DNA of 64,000 nucleotides from Alphaproteobacteria bacterium (GTDB taxonomy: Bacteria > Pseudomonadota > Alphaproteobacteria > UBA828). The stretch's first letter is position 1. The number at the start of each line of letters is the position of its first letter. This document shows, in pieces, positions 44,935 through 50,621 of the stretch. The notes under the pieces were generated by a model. That model did not search any database. It was not told the origin of the DNA and saw nothing but the letters and a program-made list of their open reading frames with translations. Position numbers and translations under genes: made by a program. The stretch spans positions 2,688,001-2,752,000 of the forward strand of contig CBDEFM010000002.1 in assembly GCA_965237415.1 (NCBI GenBank), read 5' to 3'.

Positions 44935-45597
44935 TCAGTCCCCACACTCGATGGGGCCGATCACGCGCTCGATCGCCTCGGCTGCCACGACGCCGGCGCG
45001 GAGCAGGCGAGGAGTCTCTCCGGTGAGGTCAAGCAGCGTCGAGCCAAGGCGCTCGGCGGCGCGCCCGCCGTCGATGACCAGCGCGACATGGGCCCCGAGG
45101 CCGGCCACGACCTCAGCCGCAGTCAGCGGGCTCGGCGCGCCCGAGGGGTTCGCGCTCGGCGCGGTCAGCGGCCGTCCGGCGGCCTCGACGACGGCACGCG
45201 CGGTCTCGTTGCCGGGGATGCGGAGCGACACGCCGGGCGCTCCTTGGTGGACCAGCGGCGAAAGCGGGGAGTCTGCGGCGCGCGGCAACACCAGCGTCAG
45301 CGGACCGGGCCAAAATGCCTCGGCAAGCGCGCGAGCGGGCGCAGGGAAGTCCGCGCAGGCCTCCGCCATCGCCAGCGTGGCGACAAGGGCGATGAGCGGC
45401 TTATCCGGCGGGCGGCCCTTGGCACGAAACACGCCGGCCACGGCATCGTCGTCGGTGGCATTGGCGGCGAGGCCGTAGACCGTATCGGTCGGCAGCCCGA
45501 CCAGCCCGCCCTGGCGGATCACCCGCGCGGCTCGCGCAATGACCGCCTGCGTCGGTTTGAGGCACGGGGGGCCGGTTTCGGTGTCGGATCGCGTCAT
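44935..45597 (-). CDS. tsaC: L-threonylcarbamoyladenylate synthase (TsaC/Sua5 YrdC domain)
   Basis: LPTDTVYGL, KGRP, FWPGPLT, APSANPSG; start at ATG 45597. Confidence 0.9.
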   Translation of the reverse strand: MTRSDTETGPPCLKPTQAVIARAARVIRQGGLVGLPTDTVYGLAANATDDDAVAGVFRAKGRPPDKPLIALVATLAMAEACADFPAPARALAEAFWPGPLTLVLPRAADSPLSPLVHQGAPGVSLRIPGNETARAVVEAAGRPLTAPSANPSGAPSPLTAAEVVAGLGAHVALVIDGGRAAERLGSTLLDLTGETPRLLRAGVVAAEAIERVIGPIECGD

Positions 45598-45602
45598 CGG
45601 GT

Positions 45603-46385
45603 CTAGTCCACGCCGCAGGCGACGAACGGCGGATTGACGAACCCCGCCTTGCCGTAGCGAAGCGCGCGCCCGTTCAGGTCGCGGACATGGCCGCCCGCCA
45701 CCTCGAGAATCGCCTGACCCGCCGCGGTGTCCCATTCCATGGTGCGGCCGAAGCGCGGGTAAAGATCGGCCTCGCCCCGCGCGAGCAGGCCGAACTTGAG
45801 GGCGCTGCCGGCGCTCGCGGTGCGCGCAGGCCGCAGTTCCGCGATGTACGCGTCGGTCTCGGCGTCGCGGTGCGAACGGCTGGCGATCACCGCGGGGCCC
45901 TCGCCGGGCACCGCTCTCGCGCGGATCGTTTGCGGCGCCCCGTTGCCGACGAAACGCATCGCCTGCCCTTGTCCATCGGCGACATAGGTCTCGTCATGGG
46001 CCGGCGCGTGGAGCACGCCGAGCACCGGCCGGCCGGCCTCGATCAGCGCGATGTTGACGGTGAATTCGTCGGTCCGCGCGATGAACTCCCGGGTCCCGTC
46101 TAGCGGATCGACGAGCCAGAAGCGGCCGCCGGCGGGTGCCGCTGGCGCGAGGGTGTCCGTGCTCTCCTCCGAGATCACGGGGATGCGCGGGTCGGCGGCG
46201 AGCAGACCCGCGACGATGAGGCGATCCGCCGCTCGGTCCGCCTCGGTTATCGGCGAGCGATCGTCCTTCGTCTCGACCGTCGTGCCGTCGCGGTAGAAGG
46301 CCATGATTGTCCGCCCGGCCTCCAGCGCCAGATGCCGGGCCGCAGCCGCTAACCGCAGGTAGTCCTCGCTGCTCGTGCCGGTCAT
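45603..46385 (-). CDS. cysQ: 3'(2'),5'-bisphosphate nucleotidase
   Basis: SPITEAD, LVDPLDGTREF, SRSH, GSALKF, MEWDTAAG. Confidence 0.93.
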   Translation of the reverse strand: MTGTSSEDYLRLAAAARHLALEAGRTIMAFYRDGTTVETKDDRSPITEADRAADRLIVAGLLAADPRIPVISEESTDTLAPAAPAGGRFWLVDPLDGTREFIARTDEFTVNIALIEAGRPVLGVLHAPAHDETYVADGQGQAMRFVGNGAPQTIRARAVPGEGPAVIASRSHRDAETDAYIAELRPARTASAGSALKFGLLARGEADLYPRFGRTMEWDTAAGQAILEVAGGHVRDLNGRALRYGKAGFVNPPFVACGVD

Positions 46386-46556
46386 CGGCCGTCCCTGGCA
46401 TTCACGCTACGGTAATCGACACGAACGCGCTTTCACGTGCCGCCCATATACACCACAATGGCATGGGCTTCGCGCAGCGCGGCCATCCGAAGAGGTGGCG
46501 CGAAATCCCAATTCCAAAGCAATCGAAAACGCGCCTGCGAGGAGGAGATACCGAGG

Positions 46557-46778
46557 ATGATTAAGGAAACTGTGGTCGCCGTGAGTATCATCACCATGGC
46601 GGCCGGCGCCGCTCTTGCGCCGTCGGCCGTATCTGCAGGGGACCAGCCGATCGTCGTCGCGGACTCGCACGAGGATCCGTGCAACCCGTGCGCCGCTTGT
46701 AACCCGTGCGCGGCCTGCAACCCTTGTGCCGCGTGCAACCCGTGTTGCGCCGATCCCTGCAACCCGTGTGCCTGCTGA
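46557..46778 (+). CDS. Small secreted Cys-rich peptide (73 aa, CNP/CAA repeats)
   Basis: AGGAGGA RBS before ATG 46557; signal-like MIKETVVAVSIITMAAGAALAPSAVSA; tail [34 protein letters not shown] (12 Cys); followed by a terminator. Confidence 0.85.
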   Translation: MIKETVVAVSIITMAAGAALAPSAVSAGDQPIVVADSHEDPCNPCAACNPCAACNPCAACNPCCADPCNPCAC

Positions 46779-46806
46779 CGCGACGCGTACGTCTGACCTT
46801 ATCCGA

Positions 46807-46840
46807 GGGCGCCGCCTCACGAGAGGCGGCGTTCTTATTT
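46807..46840 (+). terminator. Intrinsic terminator after the Cys-rich peptide
   Basis: gggcgccgcctc-acga-gaggcggcgttc hairpin followed by ttattt. Confidence 0.75.
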
Positions 46841-46889
46841 CGAGGGCGCTGCGGCACCTCTAGGCTCGGCACCGGCGGTCGGCCGCATT

Positions 46890-47663
46890 TCAGTCGGCGC
46901 TCCGGGTCCTGGCATCGAGAGCGGCCCTGACTGCGGCCATCTGAGCCTCGATCGCAACCTCGGCCTGCGAGACGACCTCGAGGCGGCGGTCCTCGAGCGT
47001 GTCCTTGCCCGGATTCTGCGAGGTCCAGCTCTCGATGACCTGATCCCGCGCCTTGAGCAGCAGGATGATCTGGGGCCAGAACAGCCGCACCATGGCACCG
47101 ACCCAGCGGTTGGTCGGCCAGGACGGGCGAGCGTGGTCGATGACGAAGCTGCCGATTACCTTGGCCACATCGTCGCCGCGATACCAGGTCTCGCCGGTGA
47201 CCCAGCGGTTGGTGGTGAAGAGCCTGAGCGGCTGACCCTTCGAACCCATTGAGATGGCGACCACATGGGTGAGCGCGTCGTCGCCCATGGGCCATTTGTC
47301 GCGACTCTTGCGGTGCATGGGCTTCATGCCGCGCGGCATCCCCTTGGCGCGGACGAAGGTGTGGAAGTGCCCGTGTTCCGTGTCCCTGAAGCCGCCGGGA
47401 TGGGCGTGGTAGAAGTACTGGGAGTGGCTCTGCCCGTCGAAGACATCCCCCTTCGGGTAGTGGTCCCACTCATAGAACGTCTCGTGGCCGCGCAGCACTT
47501 CGCTCACCACACTGTCGCCGGTCCGGCCGAGCACGCGCTCGATCTCACGCACCTCCTCGCCGCCGGCGAGCATCATGCGCAGCCGCTTCACCGGCTGCGT
47601 CGCCAAGTCGAGGTGGCGGGTTTCCTCCTGCCGCTCGTTCTTGGTTGCCGTGGCCTGGGCCAT
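46890..47663 (-). CDS. Hypothetical His-motif protein (DUF6969-like)
   Basis: Start MAQATATK at 47663; HYPKGDVFD, QYFYHAH, EHGHFHTF, LFTTNRWVTGETW. Family name recalled from memory, not searched. Confidence 0.7.
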   Translation of the reverse strand: MAQATATKNERQEETRHLDLATQPVKRLRMMLAGGEEVREIERVLGRTGDSVVSEVLRGHETFYEWDHYPKGDVFDGQSHSQYFYHAHPGGFRDTEHGHFHTFVRAKGMPRGMKPMHRKSRDKWPMGDDALTHVVAISMGSKGQPLRLFTTNRWVTGETWYRGDDVAKVIGSFVIDHARPSWPTNRWVGAMVRLFWPQIILLLKARDQVIESWTSQNPGKDTLEDRRLEVVSQAEVAIEAQMAAVRAALDARTRSAD

Positions 47664-47746: not shown

Positions 47747-48640
47747 CTAGCGCTCGACCTCCGTCGCCTCTCTCTCGAGCGGCGCGGCGACGAGGCGGAA
47801 GCCGACAAGGATGTGCTTGATGTCGGCAGGCCGACCATGACGCGCTGCGGGGCGGCATATGCCGCAGCCGCTGTCGTCCCACGAACCGCCCTTGACCAGG
47901 AAGCGACCCGGATTGCCGGGCGAGGCGGTCCACTCGAAGACCTGGCCTGCCGCGTCGAGCAGGCCGTAAGGGCTTGCGCCCGCAGGCCGGCTGCCGACCG
48001 GCAGCGTATCGAAGGGGCCGGCGTCGTGGCTGTTGAGAAGCGCGGGGTCGAACGTGTCGCCCCACGGGAAGATACGGCCATCGGGGCCGCGCGCGGCCTT
48101 CTCCCACTCAAGTTCGGTCGGAAGCCGCCAGGTGCGCCCGGTCTCGGCCGAAAGCCAGGCCGCATACGCCTCGGCATCGTCATGCGAGACCAGCACCACG
48201 GGATGGTCCTCGCGCCCCGGCGGCGGGGTTCCATCCACCCACGCATGGCGGCGGGTGCGCTCATAGGGGTGGATCAGCCGGTAGCCGCGCCAGGTCTCGG
48301 CATCGACATCCGGCACGCGATGGCCCGTGGCGGTCACGAACGCCGCGTACTGGGCGTTGGTGATCAGCGTACGCGTGATGAAGAAGCGCTCCAGCGACGT
48401 GGACCCGCGCGGGCGCTCGCGATCGTACCAGCCGCGCTCCCGCGTTCGGGAGTGGCCGTAAGCCGCCTCGTCGAGCTGGTAGGCGTACTCCCGCTCGGCC
48501 GCACCGGAGCCCGCGATGAAAGGCCCGGCGGGAACCTCGACCACGGCCGGGGCCGTCACGCTGCCGGCATGGGAGGTGCCCGCAAGAACGGCGCCGGAGA
48601 CCGCGAGACACACGGCCAGCAAAGCTCGGACGAAGGTCAT
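47747..48640 (-). CDS. Periplasmic FGE-sulfatase (SUMF1/NirV/PvdO) domain protein
   Basis: Signal peptide; ITNAQYAAFV, HPVVLVSHDDAEAYA, RLPTELEWEKAARG, GLLDAAGQVFEW, KGGSW, GFRLV. Confidence 0.9.
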   Translation of the reverse strand: MTFVRALLAVCLAVSGAVLAGTSHAGSVTAPAVVEVPAGPFIAGSGAAEREYAYQLDEAAYGHSRTRERGWYDRERPRGSTSLERFFITRTLITNAQYAAFVTATGHRVPDVDAETWRGYRLIHPYERTRRHAWVDGTPPPGREDHPVVLVSHDDAEAYAAWLSAETGRTWRLPTELEWEKAARGPDGRIFPWGDTFDPALLNSHDAGPFDTLPVGSRPAGASPYGLLDAAGQVFEWTASPGNPGRFLVKGGSWDDSGCGICRPAARHGRPADIKHILVGFRLVAAPLEREATEVER

Positions 48641-48764: not shown

Positions 48765-50096
48765 ATGCCACGCACGAAACCCCTGCTCGCCGGAACGGTG
48801 GTCCCTGTGGTCATCGGGCTTGCCGTCTTCACCGGCGGCGGCCACGCCGCGGCCGGCACATCCGCCACCGAAACCCCGGCGGCGACCCCGCAGCATCAGG
48901 ACCCGGGGGTGCTCCTCTTCGCTTCGTGCAACCCTTGCGGACCGTGCAATCCGTGCCGGCCGTGCGCGGGAGCCTGCGGACCATGCGGTCCCTGTAATCC
49001 CTGCAACCCATGCGCCGGCGCGTGCGGCGCGTGCGGCGCATGCGGGCCGTGCAACCCCTGCAACCCGTGTGACCCGACCGCAGGCGCCTGCGGTCCCTGC
49101 GGCGCCTGTAACCCGTGCAATCCCTGTGCTGCCGGCTGTGGCCCTTGCGGTGCGTGTAACCCCTGTGCTGCCGGCTGTGGCCCGTGCGGCGCGTGCAATC
49201 CCTGCAATCCGTGCAACCCTTGCAATCCTTGCGCCGGTGCCTGCGGTCCGTGCGGCGCCTGCAACCCATGTGCGGCCGGCGCTGCAGCCGGGTCCGACTG
49301 CGTCGTTCCGCGCCTCGCGGCCACGTGCAATCCCTGCAACCCCTGCGCTGCAGCGAATCCCTGCAACCCCTGTGGGCCTTGCAACCCGTGCAATCCATGT
49401 GCAGTCGCCTGCGCACCGTGCGGCCCCTGCAACCCGTGTGCGGCGTGTAACCCTTGCAACCCCTGCGCGCCGTGCAATCCGTGTAATCCCTGTGCTGCGA
49501 ACCCGTGCAACCCCTGCGCACCCTGCAATCCGTGCGCACCCTGCAACCCGTGCGGCGCCTGCAATCCATGCAATCCGTGCGCTGCTGGCGAGGCGATCGA
49601 GCTGAGCGCGGCCGAGGCCAGAGACGCCTATGCCTGCATCAGTGCGGTCATGGCCAAGGGCTACGCCAAGTCGGGCAACCAGTGGGCAGCGTCCTACCAG
49701 AACTGGAGGAACGTCGCGGCCCAGCCCTATGTCTCCGACACCCATGGCGCGCGCTACGTCAACAACTACGCCAACGATGTCGGCGCGGACAACTACAGTC
49801 TCTTCGAAGAGGCGGGACCGGCGCCCGCCGGAACCGTTCTCGCCAAGGACAGTTTCGTGGTCAGAGCCAACGGCAACGTGGGCGCGGGGCCGCTCTTCCT
49901 GATGGAGAAGATGGAGTCCGGCTTCAACGCCGATACGGGAGACTGGCGCTATACGCTGATCATGCCGAACGGCCGGGTGATCGGCACCACCGGCGGAAAG
50001 GGCGCCAAGAACGTCGTCTTCTGCGCCGAGTGTCACCTCTCTGTCGAGGAACACGACAGCCGCTTCTTCCTCGACGAGGAGTATCGGATCCAGTAG
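48765..50096 (+). CDS. Secreted Cys-rich (CNP repeat) protein fused to a cytochrome P460/c'-beta-like domain
   Basis: GAGGGAGG RBS; signal peptide; about 218-aa Cys-triplet region; C-terminal [21 protein letters not shown] and single CAECH heme motif. Confidence 0.82.
48927..49580 (+). repeat. Coding 9-bp-periodic repeat (C-N-P, C-G-P, C-G-A, C-A-P)
   Basis: Recurrent tg(c/t)aa(c/t)ccN units; about 64 Cys by manual count; exact 23-bp duplicate at 49122-49144 and 49161-49183. Confidence 0.95.
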
Positions 50097-50231
50097 TCAC
50101 CCGCCGGCGGCGCGTTGCCTCCCGGGCACGGCGCGCCGCCGGCCCCCAAGGCCTCCTTGATCAGGGGTGCGAACCCGGCCTATGTTCGCGCCTCCACCGC
50201 CTCACCGGGGACTAGACCTAAGGAGATACCC

Positions 50232-50621
50232 GTGCGCGTACGTCACGTTCTCGCCATCGCCCTCGCCACCGCCATGATGGCGGCGAGCGCGTCCGCCATT
50301 GCTGCTGATGTGAAGAAGGGCAAGAAGGTCTTCAAGAAGTGCAAGGTCTGCCACACCGTCAAGGAGGGCGGCAAGCACAAGGTCGGCCCCAACCTTTACG
50401 GCGTCTTCGGGCGCACGTCTGGCACGGCCGAGGGCTTCAAGAAATACTCGAACGCGATGAAGGACGCGGCGATCGTCTGGGACGAAGAGACCATCGAGGC
50501 CTATATCGCCGACCCCAAGGGCTACGTGCCGAAGAACAAGATGGCCTTCAAAGGGGTCAGGAAAGAGAAGGACCGGCAGAACCTGATCGCCTATCTCAAG
50601 GAAGCGACAGGCGCAGAGTGA
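50232..50621 (+). CDS. Class I cytochrome c (c2/CycA-like)
   Basis: AAGGAG RBS, GTG start 50232; signal peptide; [20 protein letters not shown]. Confidence 0.93.

Follow-up and report, generated by a model that had tools for sequence, protein, structure and literature searches.

The window analysed here, a stretch of 64,000 nucleotides (nt) of contig CBDEFM010000002.1 from an alphaproteobacterium of the UBA828 lineage, contains a small open reading frame (ORF; 46557-46778, plus strand) of 73 codons plus a stop, which encodes a protein of 73 amino acids with 12 cysteines. The small gene is real and conserved. As judged from its sequence, its product is the free-standing form of a Cys-rich arm that is built from Asn-Pro-Cys (NPC) repeats and is fused to a cytochrome P460-type haem protein encoded nearby. 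Free and fused forms together constitute an undescribed family, whose members are found on their own or as the arms of three kinds of haem enzyme. What might such a peptide do in the periplasm? We tentatively propose that it is a multi-thiol arm or carrier that works with the neighbouring haem proteins. It may instead be a metal sponge or the precursor of a modified peptide, and these three readings are not mutually exclusive.

The gene is regarded as real because its ORF is intact in all related loci, its substitutions are concentrated at third codon positions, it comes with a dedicated ribosome site and terminator and has a paralog, and it is covered by contigs from RNA libraries. A scan of species genomes for relatives yielded 32 loci, all of them in uncultured alphaproteobacterial metagenome-assembled genomes. 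In 32 of the 32 loci, an intact ORF of 53-130 amino acids with 3-22 cysteines follows a purine-rich ribosome site. Over codons 1-27, the differences of these loci from the window number 123, 37 and 323 at codon positions 1, 2 and 3, respectively. The ribosome-binding site of the window gene (AGGAGGAG, 46540..46547) lies 9 nt upstream of the ATG; a GAGGAGGAG-type site is retained in the same-genus loci, and GAGGAG or GGAG variants are found in the more distant ones. Downstream, a 14-bp G+C-rich hairpin (46805-46836) followed by UUCUUAUUU forms an intrinsic-terminator-like element with a U-rich tail (46805..46843). The corresponding 75-nt stretch folds with -36.2 kcal/mol (z = -3.08), and none of 200 shuffled sequences is as stable; a simple consensus scanner reported neither a terminator nor a sigma-70 promoter at the small gene. 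The stand-alone Cys-rich ORF, the strong ribosome-binding site and the dedicated terminator, all read from the sequence in the first-pass annotation, are thus borne out.

The same annotation expected that gene callers could easily miss such a gene, which is contradicted by 43 called homologues in a large protein collection. None of them is named, and they align with the signal peptide of the small ORF, as do the 32 related loci. Within the same genus, 20 of 20 genomes other than the window's own have one to five matches to the small protein. The own genome also encodes a paralog of 73 amino acids, which begins MIKETVIAVSVITM, is 76% identical over residues 1-66 and is located at a separate locus (G000:C2:351997-352215; L002 1501-1719) between an ABC1/UbiB-type kinase gene and a pyridoxal-phosphate (PLP) enzyme gene. 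In the protein collection, this paralog belongs to an unnamed cluster of 11 members, and the exact 73-residue product of the window copy is absent. Related genomes contain a third type of paralog (L030-L033), which adjoins an integrase and a transposase gene. None of the paralog neighbourhoods, which include integrase/transposase, ABC1 kinase, PLP enzyme and MreB genes, hints at a function.

Transcription was assessed from the contigs of four metatranscriptome runs from two studies. The gene is spanned in three runs by contigs that start at 46476-46515: 46487-46790 at depth 233 in run X15 (flanking contigs at 7 and 18), 46515-47241 at depth 84 in run X16 (flanking contigs at 5 and 13) and 46476-47057 at depth 48 in run X17 (flanking contigs at about 4-5). 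Run X18 has no contig across the 5' part of the gene, from which nothing is concluded. The small gene is therefore present in RNA libraries, with some indication of high expression; contig depth is a poor guide to the ranking of genes, RNA libraries may contain DNA, and sequence words of the repeat may be shared. The abundant monocistronic product suggested in the first-pass annotation thus stands with respect to separate termination and strong translation signals, and its abundance is only hinted at by these depths.

The 5' region of the gene is also conserved. A box with the sequence CCxATATACACCACAATGG (46442..46461), about 100 nt before the start codon, is nearly invariant in an upstream alignment of 15 same-genus syntenic loci and is possibly a promoter or operator element. 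Between this box and the start codon, a small leader hairpin (46483..46500) was recognized by eye in the same alignment. Its arms read CCATC..GGTGG in the window and CCGCC..GGCGG or CCACCG..CGGTGG in orthologs, and these changes are apparently compensatory. An Rfam search of the region returned only sX6 (E = 0.05-0.1), far under the gathering score. A 14-mer with two mismatches is the sole element common to the small-gene promoter, the paralog promoter and the intergenic region upstream of the P460 gene, and a shared operator is unconvincing.

The product of the small gene is laid out as a signal peptide (MIKETVVAVSIITMAAGAALAPSAVSA), a pre-repeat segment (GDQPIVVADSHEDP) and a 32-residue core. 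The signal peptide (46557..46637, 27 codons) was called by eye as Sec-type, with an n-region MIKE, a 17-residue hydrophobic core and V-S-A before the cleavage site, and the peptide is likely to be exported via Sec. The pre-repeat segment (46638..46679) combines a short hydrophobic strand with a histidine. In longer orthologs (L034-L039, L045), a block of ESSLDExIVVAD plus repeats is duplicated; because the IVVAD lead-in is duplicated together with the repeats, it forms part of the functional module. The core (46680..46775), delimited by eye and by a tandem-repeat search, contains all 12 cysteines in five CNPC units that directly follow PIVVADSH, lacks Lys and Arg, and ends in CNPCAC. The mature peptide of approximately 46 residues is acidic and 26% Cys; it contains four Asp, one Glu and one His and has neither Lys nor Arg. 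In the AlphaFold model, the mean predicted local distance difference test (pLDDT) score is 46.8, a helix is found at residues 2-20 of the signal peptide, and the rest, including the core with pLDDT below 50, has no confident structure; the mature peptide is thus modelled as disordered. At the DNA level, the core is an 18-nt tandem repeat of 3.6 copies with 80% matches. Repeat number differs between strains and orthologs by whole units, and the X17 contig lacks exactly one 18-nt unit (CNPCAA) at 46683, indicating that the array expands and contracts in frame.

The small ORF matches the arm of the 443-residue exported P460 protein (48765..50096, plus strand) by tblastn. This protein contains two long CNPC/CGPC arms with 31 NPC units. 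A conserved C-V-V-P-R-L island separates the arms, and a cytochrome P460-type haem domain (CAECH; PF16694 at residues 310-432) comes after them. CGPC alternates with CNPC in such arms. With the P460-protein arm as the query, 867 proteins match at E <= 1e-3; among the 120 of these that were listed, about 79 carry P460 (counted by hand), 20 LysM, five SoxA/TsdA cytochrome c and one CCP/MauG domains. A profile of the small protein retrieves 230 clusters at E <= 1e-3 and 40 at E <= 1e-10, many of them with 60-130 amino acids. Family members share a plan that consists of an M-[ILF]-K-[EK]-T signal peptide, a [VI]Q[IVL]A[AS]C or ..HH.. lead-in and NPC repeats with AAK or acidic linkers. Asn-Pro-Cys is the invariant unit, many members have His ahead of the repeats, and the signal peptide is the most conserved portion of the small proteins. 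The small ORF has both the M-[ILF]-K-[EK]-T signal peptide and at least three NPC units after a hydrophobic lead-in, whereas its entire 4.75-Mb genome contains only three ORFs with at least three NPC units. The profile finds carriers in 42 of 401 genomes, including the window's own; approximately one in ten sampled alphaproteobacterial genomes has the family.

The family extends to a distant proteobacterial family (f50, 46-54% G+C). There, small secreted MNPCNPC[AS]MKK proteins adjoin a SoxA/TsdA cytochrome with an NPC arm and a multihaem cytochrome. This trio is found in five of the eight f50 loci fetched (L066, L067, L068, L072 and L077), with one or two MNPCNPC[AS]MKK(H) proteins, an arm-bearing cytochrome of 203-249 amino acids and an MtrC/c554-like multihaem protein of approximately 410 amino acids. 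Neither Pfam nor NCBIfam has a family that matches the small protein at E <= 0.01, and an Atlas search returned only unnamed clusters with scores of at most 0.86. The literature search found nothing relevant on DUF6969 (the family of the adjacent gene product), on CNPC Cys-rich periplasmic proteins, on the repeat strings, or on P460 in combination with Cys-rich or formylglycine. The gene thus belongs to an undescribed family, for which we found no Pfam or NCBIfam model and no paper, and the P460-type arm proteins are themselves undescribed.

On one side, the small gene is flanked by a divergently oriented inositol-monophosphatase-family gene, and on the other by the convergent DUF6969 gene (46890..47555, minus strand; PF22308, E = 3.9e-81), whose product has no signal peptide. 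Upstream of the DUF6969 gene on the minus strand lies a gene for an exported protein of the formylglycine-generating enzyme (FGE)-sulfatase family (47747..48640; PF03781, E = 4.3e-44), hereafter FGE-like, with an invariant GCG[IV]C motif (C259, C262). The P460 gene is divergent from the FGE-like gene and is directly followed by a cytochrome c gene (50115..50621, plus strand; c550/CycA-like; PF00034, NF043008), beyond which housekeeping genes are found. Among the 32 related loci, DUF6969 adjoins the small gene in 22, and the FGE-like, cytochrome c and P460 genes are present in 20, 19 and 17, respectively. This synteny persists to loci where the upstream Sua5-family gene (44935-45735 in the window) is only 42-48% identical.

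How could a disordered peptide with repeated CxPC motifs cooperate with haem proteins? We tentatively favour the view that the peptide, once exported via Sec, would present five thioredoxin-like CxPC dithiol units on an acidic, disordered chain of about 46 residues. Its cysteines could cycle between thiol and disulfide, or could carry a ligand such as sulfane sulfur, thiosulfate or nitric oxide. Neighbouring haem proteins would oxidise these cysteines and pass the electrons to cytochrome c, in parallel to the loading of the SoxY-arm cysteine by SoxAX. The chemistry, the thiol state and the partners of the peptide are all inferred. This proposal is based on the recurrent fusion of the repeat to haem domains, including those of the SoxA/TsdA type, whose chemistry is the oxidative loading of a carrier cysteine. 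Furthermore, two distant lineages have free and fused forms next to each other, the most frequent neighbours are c-type cytochromes, the peptide is predicted to be disordered, and CxPC has the spacing of thioredoxin, in which CGPC is the active-site motif. Sulfur-trafficking genes also lie beside free NPC genes, with which they form operon-like rows. In L085 (4355-5651, minus strand), the row is made up of an NPC gene, a rhodanese gene (CAAGIRS loop) and two cytochrome c genes. L099 (3541-6662, plus strand) contains genes for a YeeE-type sulfur transporter, a 164-residue secreted protein, an NPC protein and DUF6969, and L088 (4183-7942) combines NPC, FGE-like and DUF6969 genes with a split YeeE-type (Sulf_transp) gene. 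The first-pass annotation read the small ORF as a periplasmic metallothionein or a precursor of a ribosomally synthesized and post-translationally modified peptide (RiPP). The fusion of the same arm to a haem protein 2 kb downstream points to thiol or redox chemistry at least as much as to metal storage.

Several observations weigh against a role as a multi-thiol arm. The small gene persists without P460 in L054, L055 and L057, where DUF6969 is kept (FGE-like is also lost in L054 and L057), and its paralogs are found among unrelated genes. Its tightest partner, DUF6969, appears to be cytoplasmic and is left unexplained by the arm model. In addition, we know of no reductant that would regenerate the arm. 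Linkers rich in Met, His and Lys in other lineages (MNPCNPCSMKKH in f50; AQMPMMNPC..AAHMPKKMNPC in L062) favour metal binding, as do DUF6969 loci with metal genes. Metal-related neighbours were found in only two of 40 DUF6969 loci from different families: in L104 (3996-8122), which contains two NPC-like small ORFs, DUF6969 adjoins NrsF, MerR and HMA-domain genes, and in L113 (4372-5811) it adjoins a multicopper oxidase gene.

A second reading, a possible but rather doubtful one, follows the periplasmic metallothionein of the first-pass annotation and takes the peptide for a periplasmic metal sponge. Reduced CxxC pairs would bind and buffer soft metal ions, for example Cu(I), Zn, Cd or Hg; SilE/PcoE and bufferins play the same part with a different chemistry. 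The Cys content, acidity and predicted disorder of the mature peptide are consistent with such a role, and so are the His residues ahead of the repeats in many members and the metal genes of L104 and L113. The interleaved Met, His and Lys of the f50 and L062 linkers are typical periplasmic Cu(I) ligands. Canonical FGEs are described as copper enzymes (PMC4505483), and the FGE-like neighbour keeps an invariant CxxC. However, neither the window cluster nor the f50 loci scanned with Pfam encode an efflux pump, P-type ATPase, CopA/Cus/Czc protein or metal regulator, and the recurrent neighbours are haem proteins. Moreover, the small protein matches no metallothionein or bufferin model in Pfam or NCBIfam. 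To our knowledge, bacteria rarely export peptides made up nearly entirely of cysteine because thiols are oxidised in the periplasm, and unmodified thiols of the sponge would be expected to oxidise in an aerobic periplasm.

A third reading, which we consider unlikely, is that the peptide is a modified precursor. Its cysteines would be converted before export by DUF6969 or after export by the periplasmic FGE-family protein, and the product would be a metallophore or a reactive (aldehyde) peptide. Modification by these two partners, neither of which figured in the first-pass annotation, is possible. Across genomes, DUF6969 and NPC genes are strongly coupled. DUF6969 was found in 67 of 301 sampled alphaproteobacterial genomes (a tally that includes the unpublished genome G649), whereas it is present in 40 of the 41 other alphaproteobacterial genomes that the NPC profile matches, and the exception is a 79%-complete genome. 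In 26 of these 41 genomes, an NPC match and DUF6969 are no more than 10 kb apart, and in 22 the distance is at most 3 kb. An ORF scan adds three genomes with an NPC gene near DUF6969, and the profile thus missed at least three NPC genes. Because related genomes are not independent, no P-value is attached to these counts. Among the 40 DUF6969 loci, 17 have an ORF with at least three NPC units within approximately 6 kb, compared with three such ORFs in the whole of the window's own genome; of these 17 loci, nine encode free small proteins and nine encode P460 fusions, with both in L089. Yet the other 23 loci lack a nearby NPC gene, none of the five f50 genomes that carry NPC proteins was found to have DUF6969, and the small-gene paralogs are far from any candidate enzyme. 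DUF6969 is also often convergent with the small gene, as in the window, and not co-transcribed with it, and the FGE-like gene is likewise not co-transcribed here.

Is DUF6969 an enzyme? Its ortholog alignment contains eight invariant His and two invariant Glu residues, which would suit a modifying enzyme. Its predicted model has a pLDDT of 68 and shows no fold match: the best Foldseek hit has E = 0.5, the best hit of a wide VIA-align search has Z = 4.0, and Atlas gave no usable match. At E <= 10, Pfam adds nothing more for the window protein and only RESC1_2 (E = 0.17) for the L062 copy. A search of PDB sequences with the DUF6969 profile returned only pyocin S8 (E = 0.96). The HNH region of pyocin S8 shows a weak, non-significant likeness to DUF6969 residues 56-105 (..ALxHVVxISM.. 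versus ..AIHHVVQISQGG..). DUF6969 could equally be a regulator, and its N-terminal helices resemble a helix-turn-helix by eye. FGE-like genes recur beside it, and so do, in many families, cytochrome c and DUF2336/SpbR genes.

The FGE-like protein is the other candidate for modification. An FGE-family gene is present, in addition to its occurrence in 20 of the 32 related loci, in about ten of the 40 DUF6969 loci and once in f50 (L066). The FGE substrate motif is C-x-P-x-R. The CNPC units read C-N-P-C-A/C, so that C-N-P fits the first three positions of the motif, but the Arg at +4 is absent. The C-x-[VI]-P-R-L island, which is also present in P460 fusions from eight further families (L083, L086, L089, L091, L093, L108, L109 and L111), is a candidate target and is found in P460 fusions both with and without a nearby FGE gene. 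True FGEs have a copper-binding Cys pair in a loop that corresponds to GGSWDD.GCG[IV]CR.AARH of the FGE-like protein, a sequence that is kept in 16 orthologs with both cysteines invariant. When the two loops are anchored on AAR, the first Cys presumably occupies the site of the first catalytic Cys of true FGEs and the second is shifted by two residues. However, the nearest solved relatives of the FGE-like protein, ToxD and CalU17, are not true FGEs, and the L066 copy lacks the Cys pair.

The signal peptide of the small protein is unusually conserved, as it is in Sec-dependent bufferin precursors (PMC12452194). The small gene nevertheless does not encode a bufferin-type RiPP because its 96%-complete genome lacks MNIO (DUF692, PF05114), for which a positive control was matched in Caulobacter. 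The DUF692 and radical SAM neighbours suggested in the first-pass annotation are accordingly missing, with no radical SAM gene in the window cluster. The SPASM genes near DUF6969 in L090 and L095, considered as a radical SAM substitute for FGE, encode PqqE (E = 1e-169) and not sulfatase maturases. A more ambitious version, which we regard as improbable, is that NPC proteins and DUF6969, often together with a CxxC-containing FGE-like protein, form a new maturation system. In such a system, a His-rich metalloenzyme would convert the cysteines of Sec-targeted repeat peptides and haem-protein arms, providing a second, MNIO-independent route to exported modified-Cys peptides with the small ORF as the minimal substrate.

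A disulfide cross-linker or structural envelope filler, joined by intermolecular disulfides to P460 arms or LysM-anchored relatives, is very improbable. The 20 LysM peptidoglycan-binding domains among the 120 listed arm proteins and the predicted disorder of the peptide would suit it, but nothing points specifically to cross-linking and CxPC spacing favours intramolecular disulfides. Finally, the possibility that the ORF arose by chance from an 18-nt repeat in G+C-rich DNA, or is a decayed piece of the P460-protein arm, can be dismissed: although the core is a tandem repeat and antisense ORFs overlap it, the loci intact across genera, the third-position bias of substitutions, the ribosome site and terminator, the paralog and the RNA contigs refute this explanation.

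The small protein resembles several known systems in part. Metallothioneins (SmtA/BmtA, MymT) and SilE/PcoE are likewise small with dense metal ligands, and SilE/PcoE are also disordered in the periplasm. However, SmtA and MymT reside in the cytoplasm, and the ligands of SilE/PcoE are His and Met instead of Cys. Moreover, the small protein is unrelated in sequence to metallothioneins, with no Pfam match to them, and its gene has no metal-resistance genes nearby. In SoxYZ/SoxAX, a Cys on a flexible arm accepts haem-catalysed oxidative conjugation, and NPC arms are fused to SoxA/TsdA domains (PF21342). SoxY has its own fold and a C-terminal GGCGG swinging arm with one Cys, whereas the small protein has neither that fold nor a GGCGG end, contains many cysteines and is encoded in the window near a P460-type partner rather than SoxA. 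CNPC and CGPC share the spacing and the proline of the thioredoxin CxPC motif, without a thioredoxin fold around it.

PMC12452194 and PMC11626156 describe bufferins (Buf1/DUF2282, Buf2) and oxazolins as MNIO-modified, copper-binding periplasmic RiPPs that are likewise made from small Cys-rich precursors with Sec signal peptides. The small ORF has a predicted Sec signal peptide as well, but it matches neither DUF2282 nor the NCBIfam bufferin and oxazolin models, has a different repeat architecture and is associated with DUF6969 and the FGE-like protein instead of MNIO and DUF2063. The P460-fused arm has the same CNPC/CGPC/NPC unit, a similar hydrophobic-A-S/A-C lead-in, an export signal and the same locus; the small protein, by contrast, lacks the haem domain, and its highly conserved signal peptide (MIKETVVAV...) is a different one.

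The family occurs in alphaproteobacteria and in a second distant lineage, and it has DUF6969 as a near-obligate companion. Whichever reading is true, the redox, sulfur or metal biology of the periplasm would gain a new component, and DUF6969 as well as one branch of the FGE superfamily would be placed in a functional context for the first time. With 46 residues, the peptide can be synthesized, and the readings are directly testable. Each leading reading, if true, would make the peptide a new variant of a known periplasmic component, namely a carrier arm, a metal buffer or a Sec-dependent modified peptide, and if DUF6969 were a Cys-modifying enzyme, the system would be categorically new.

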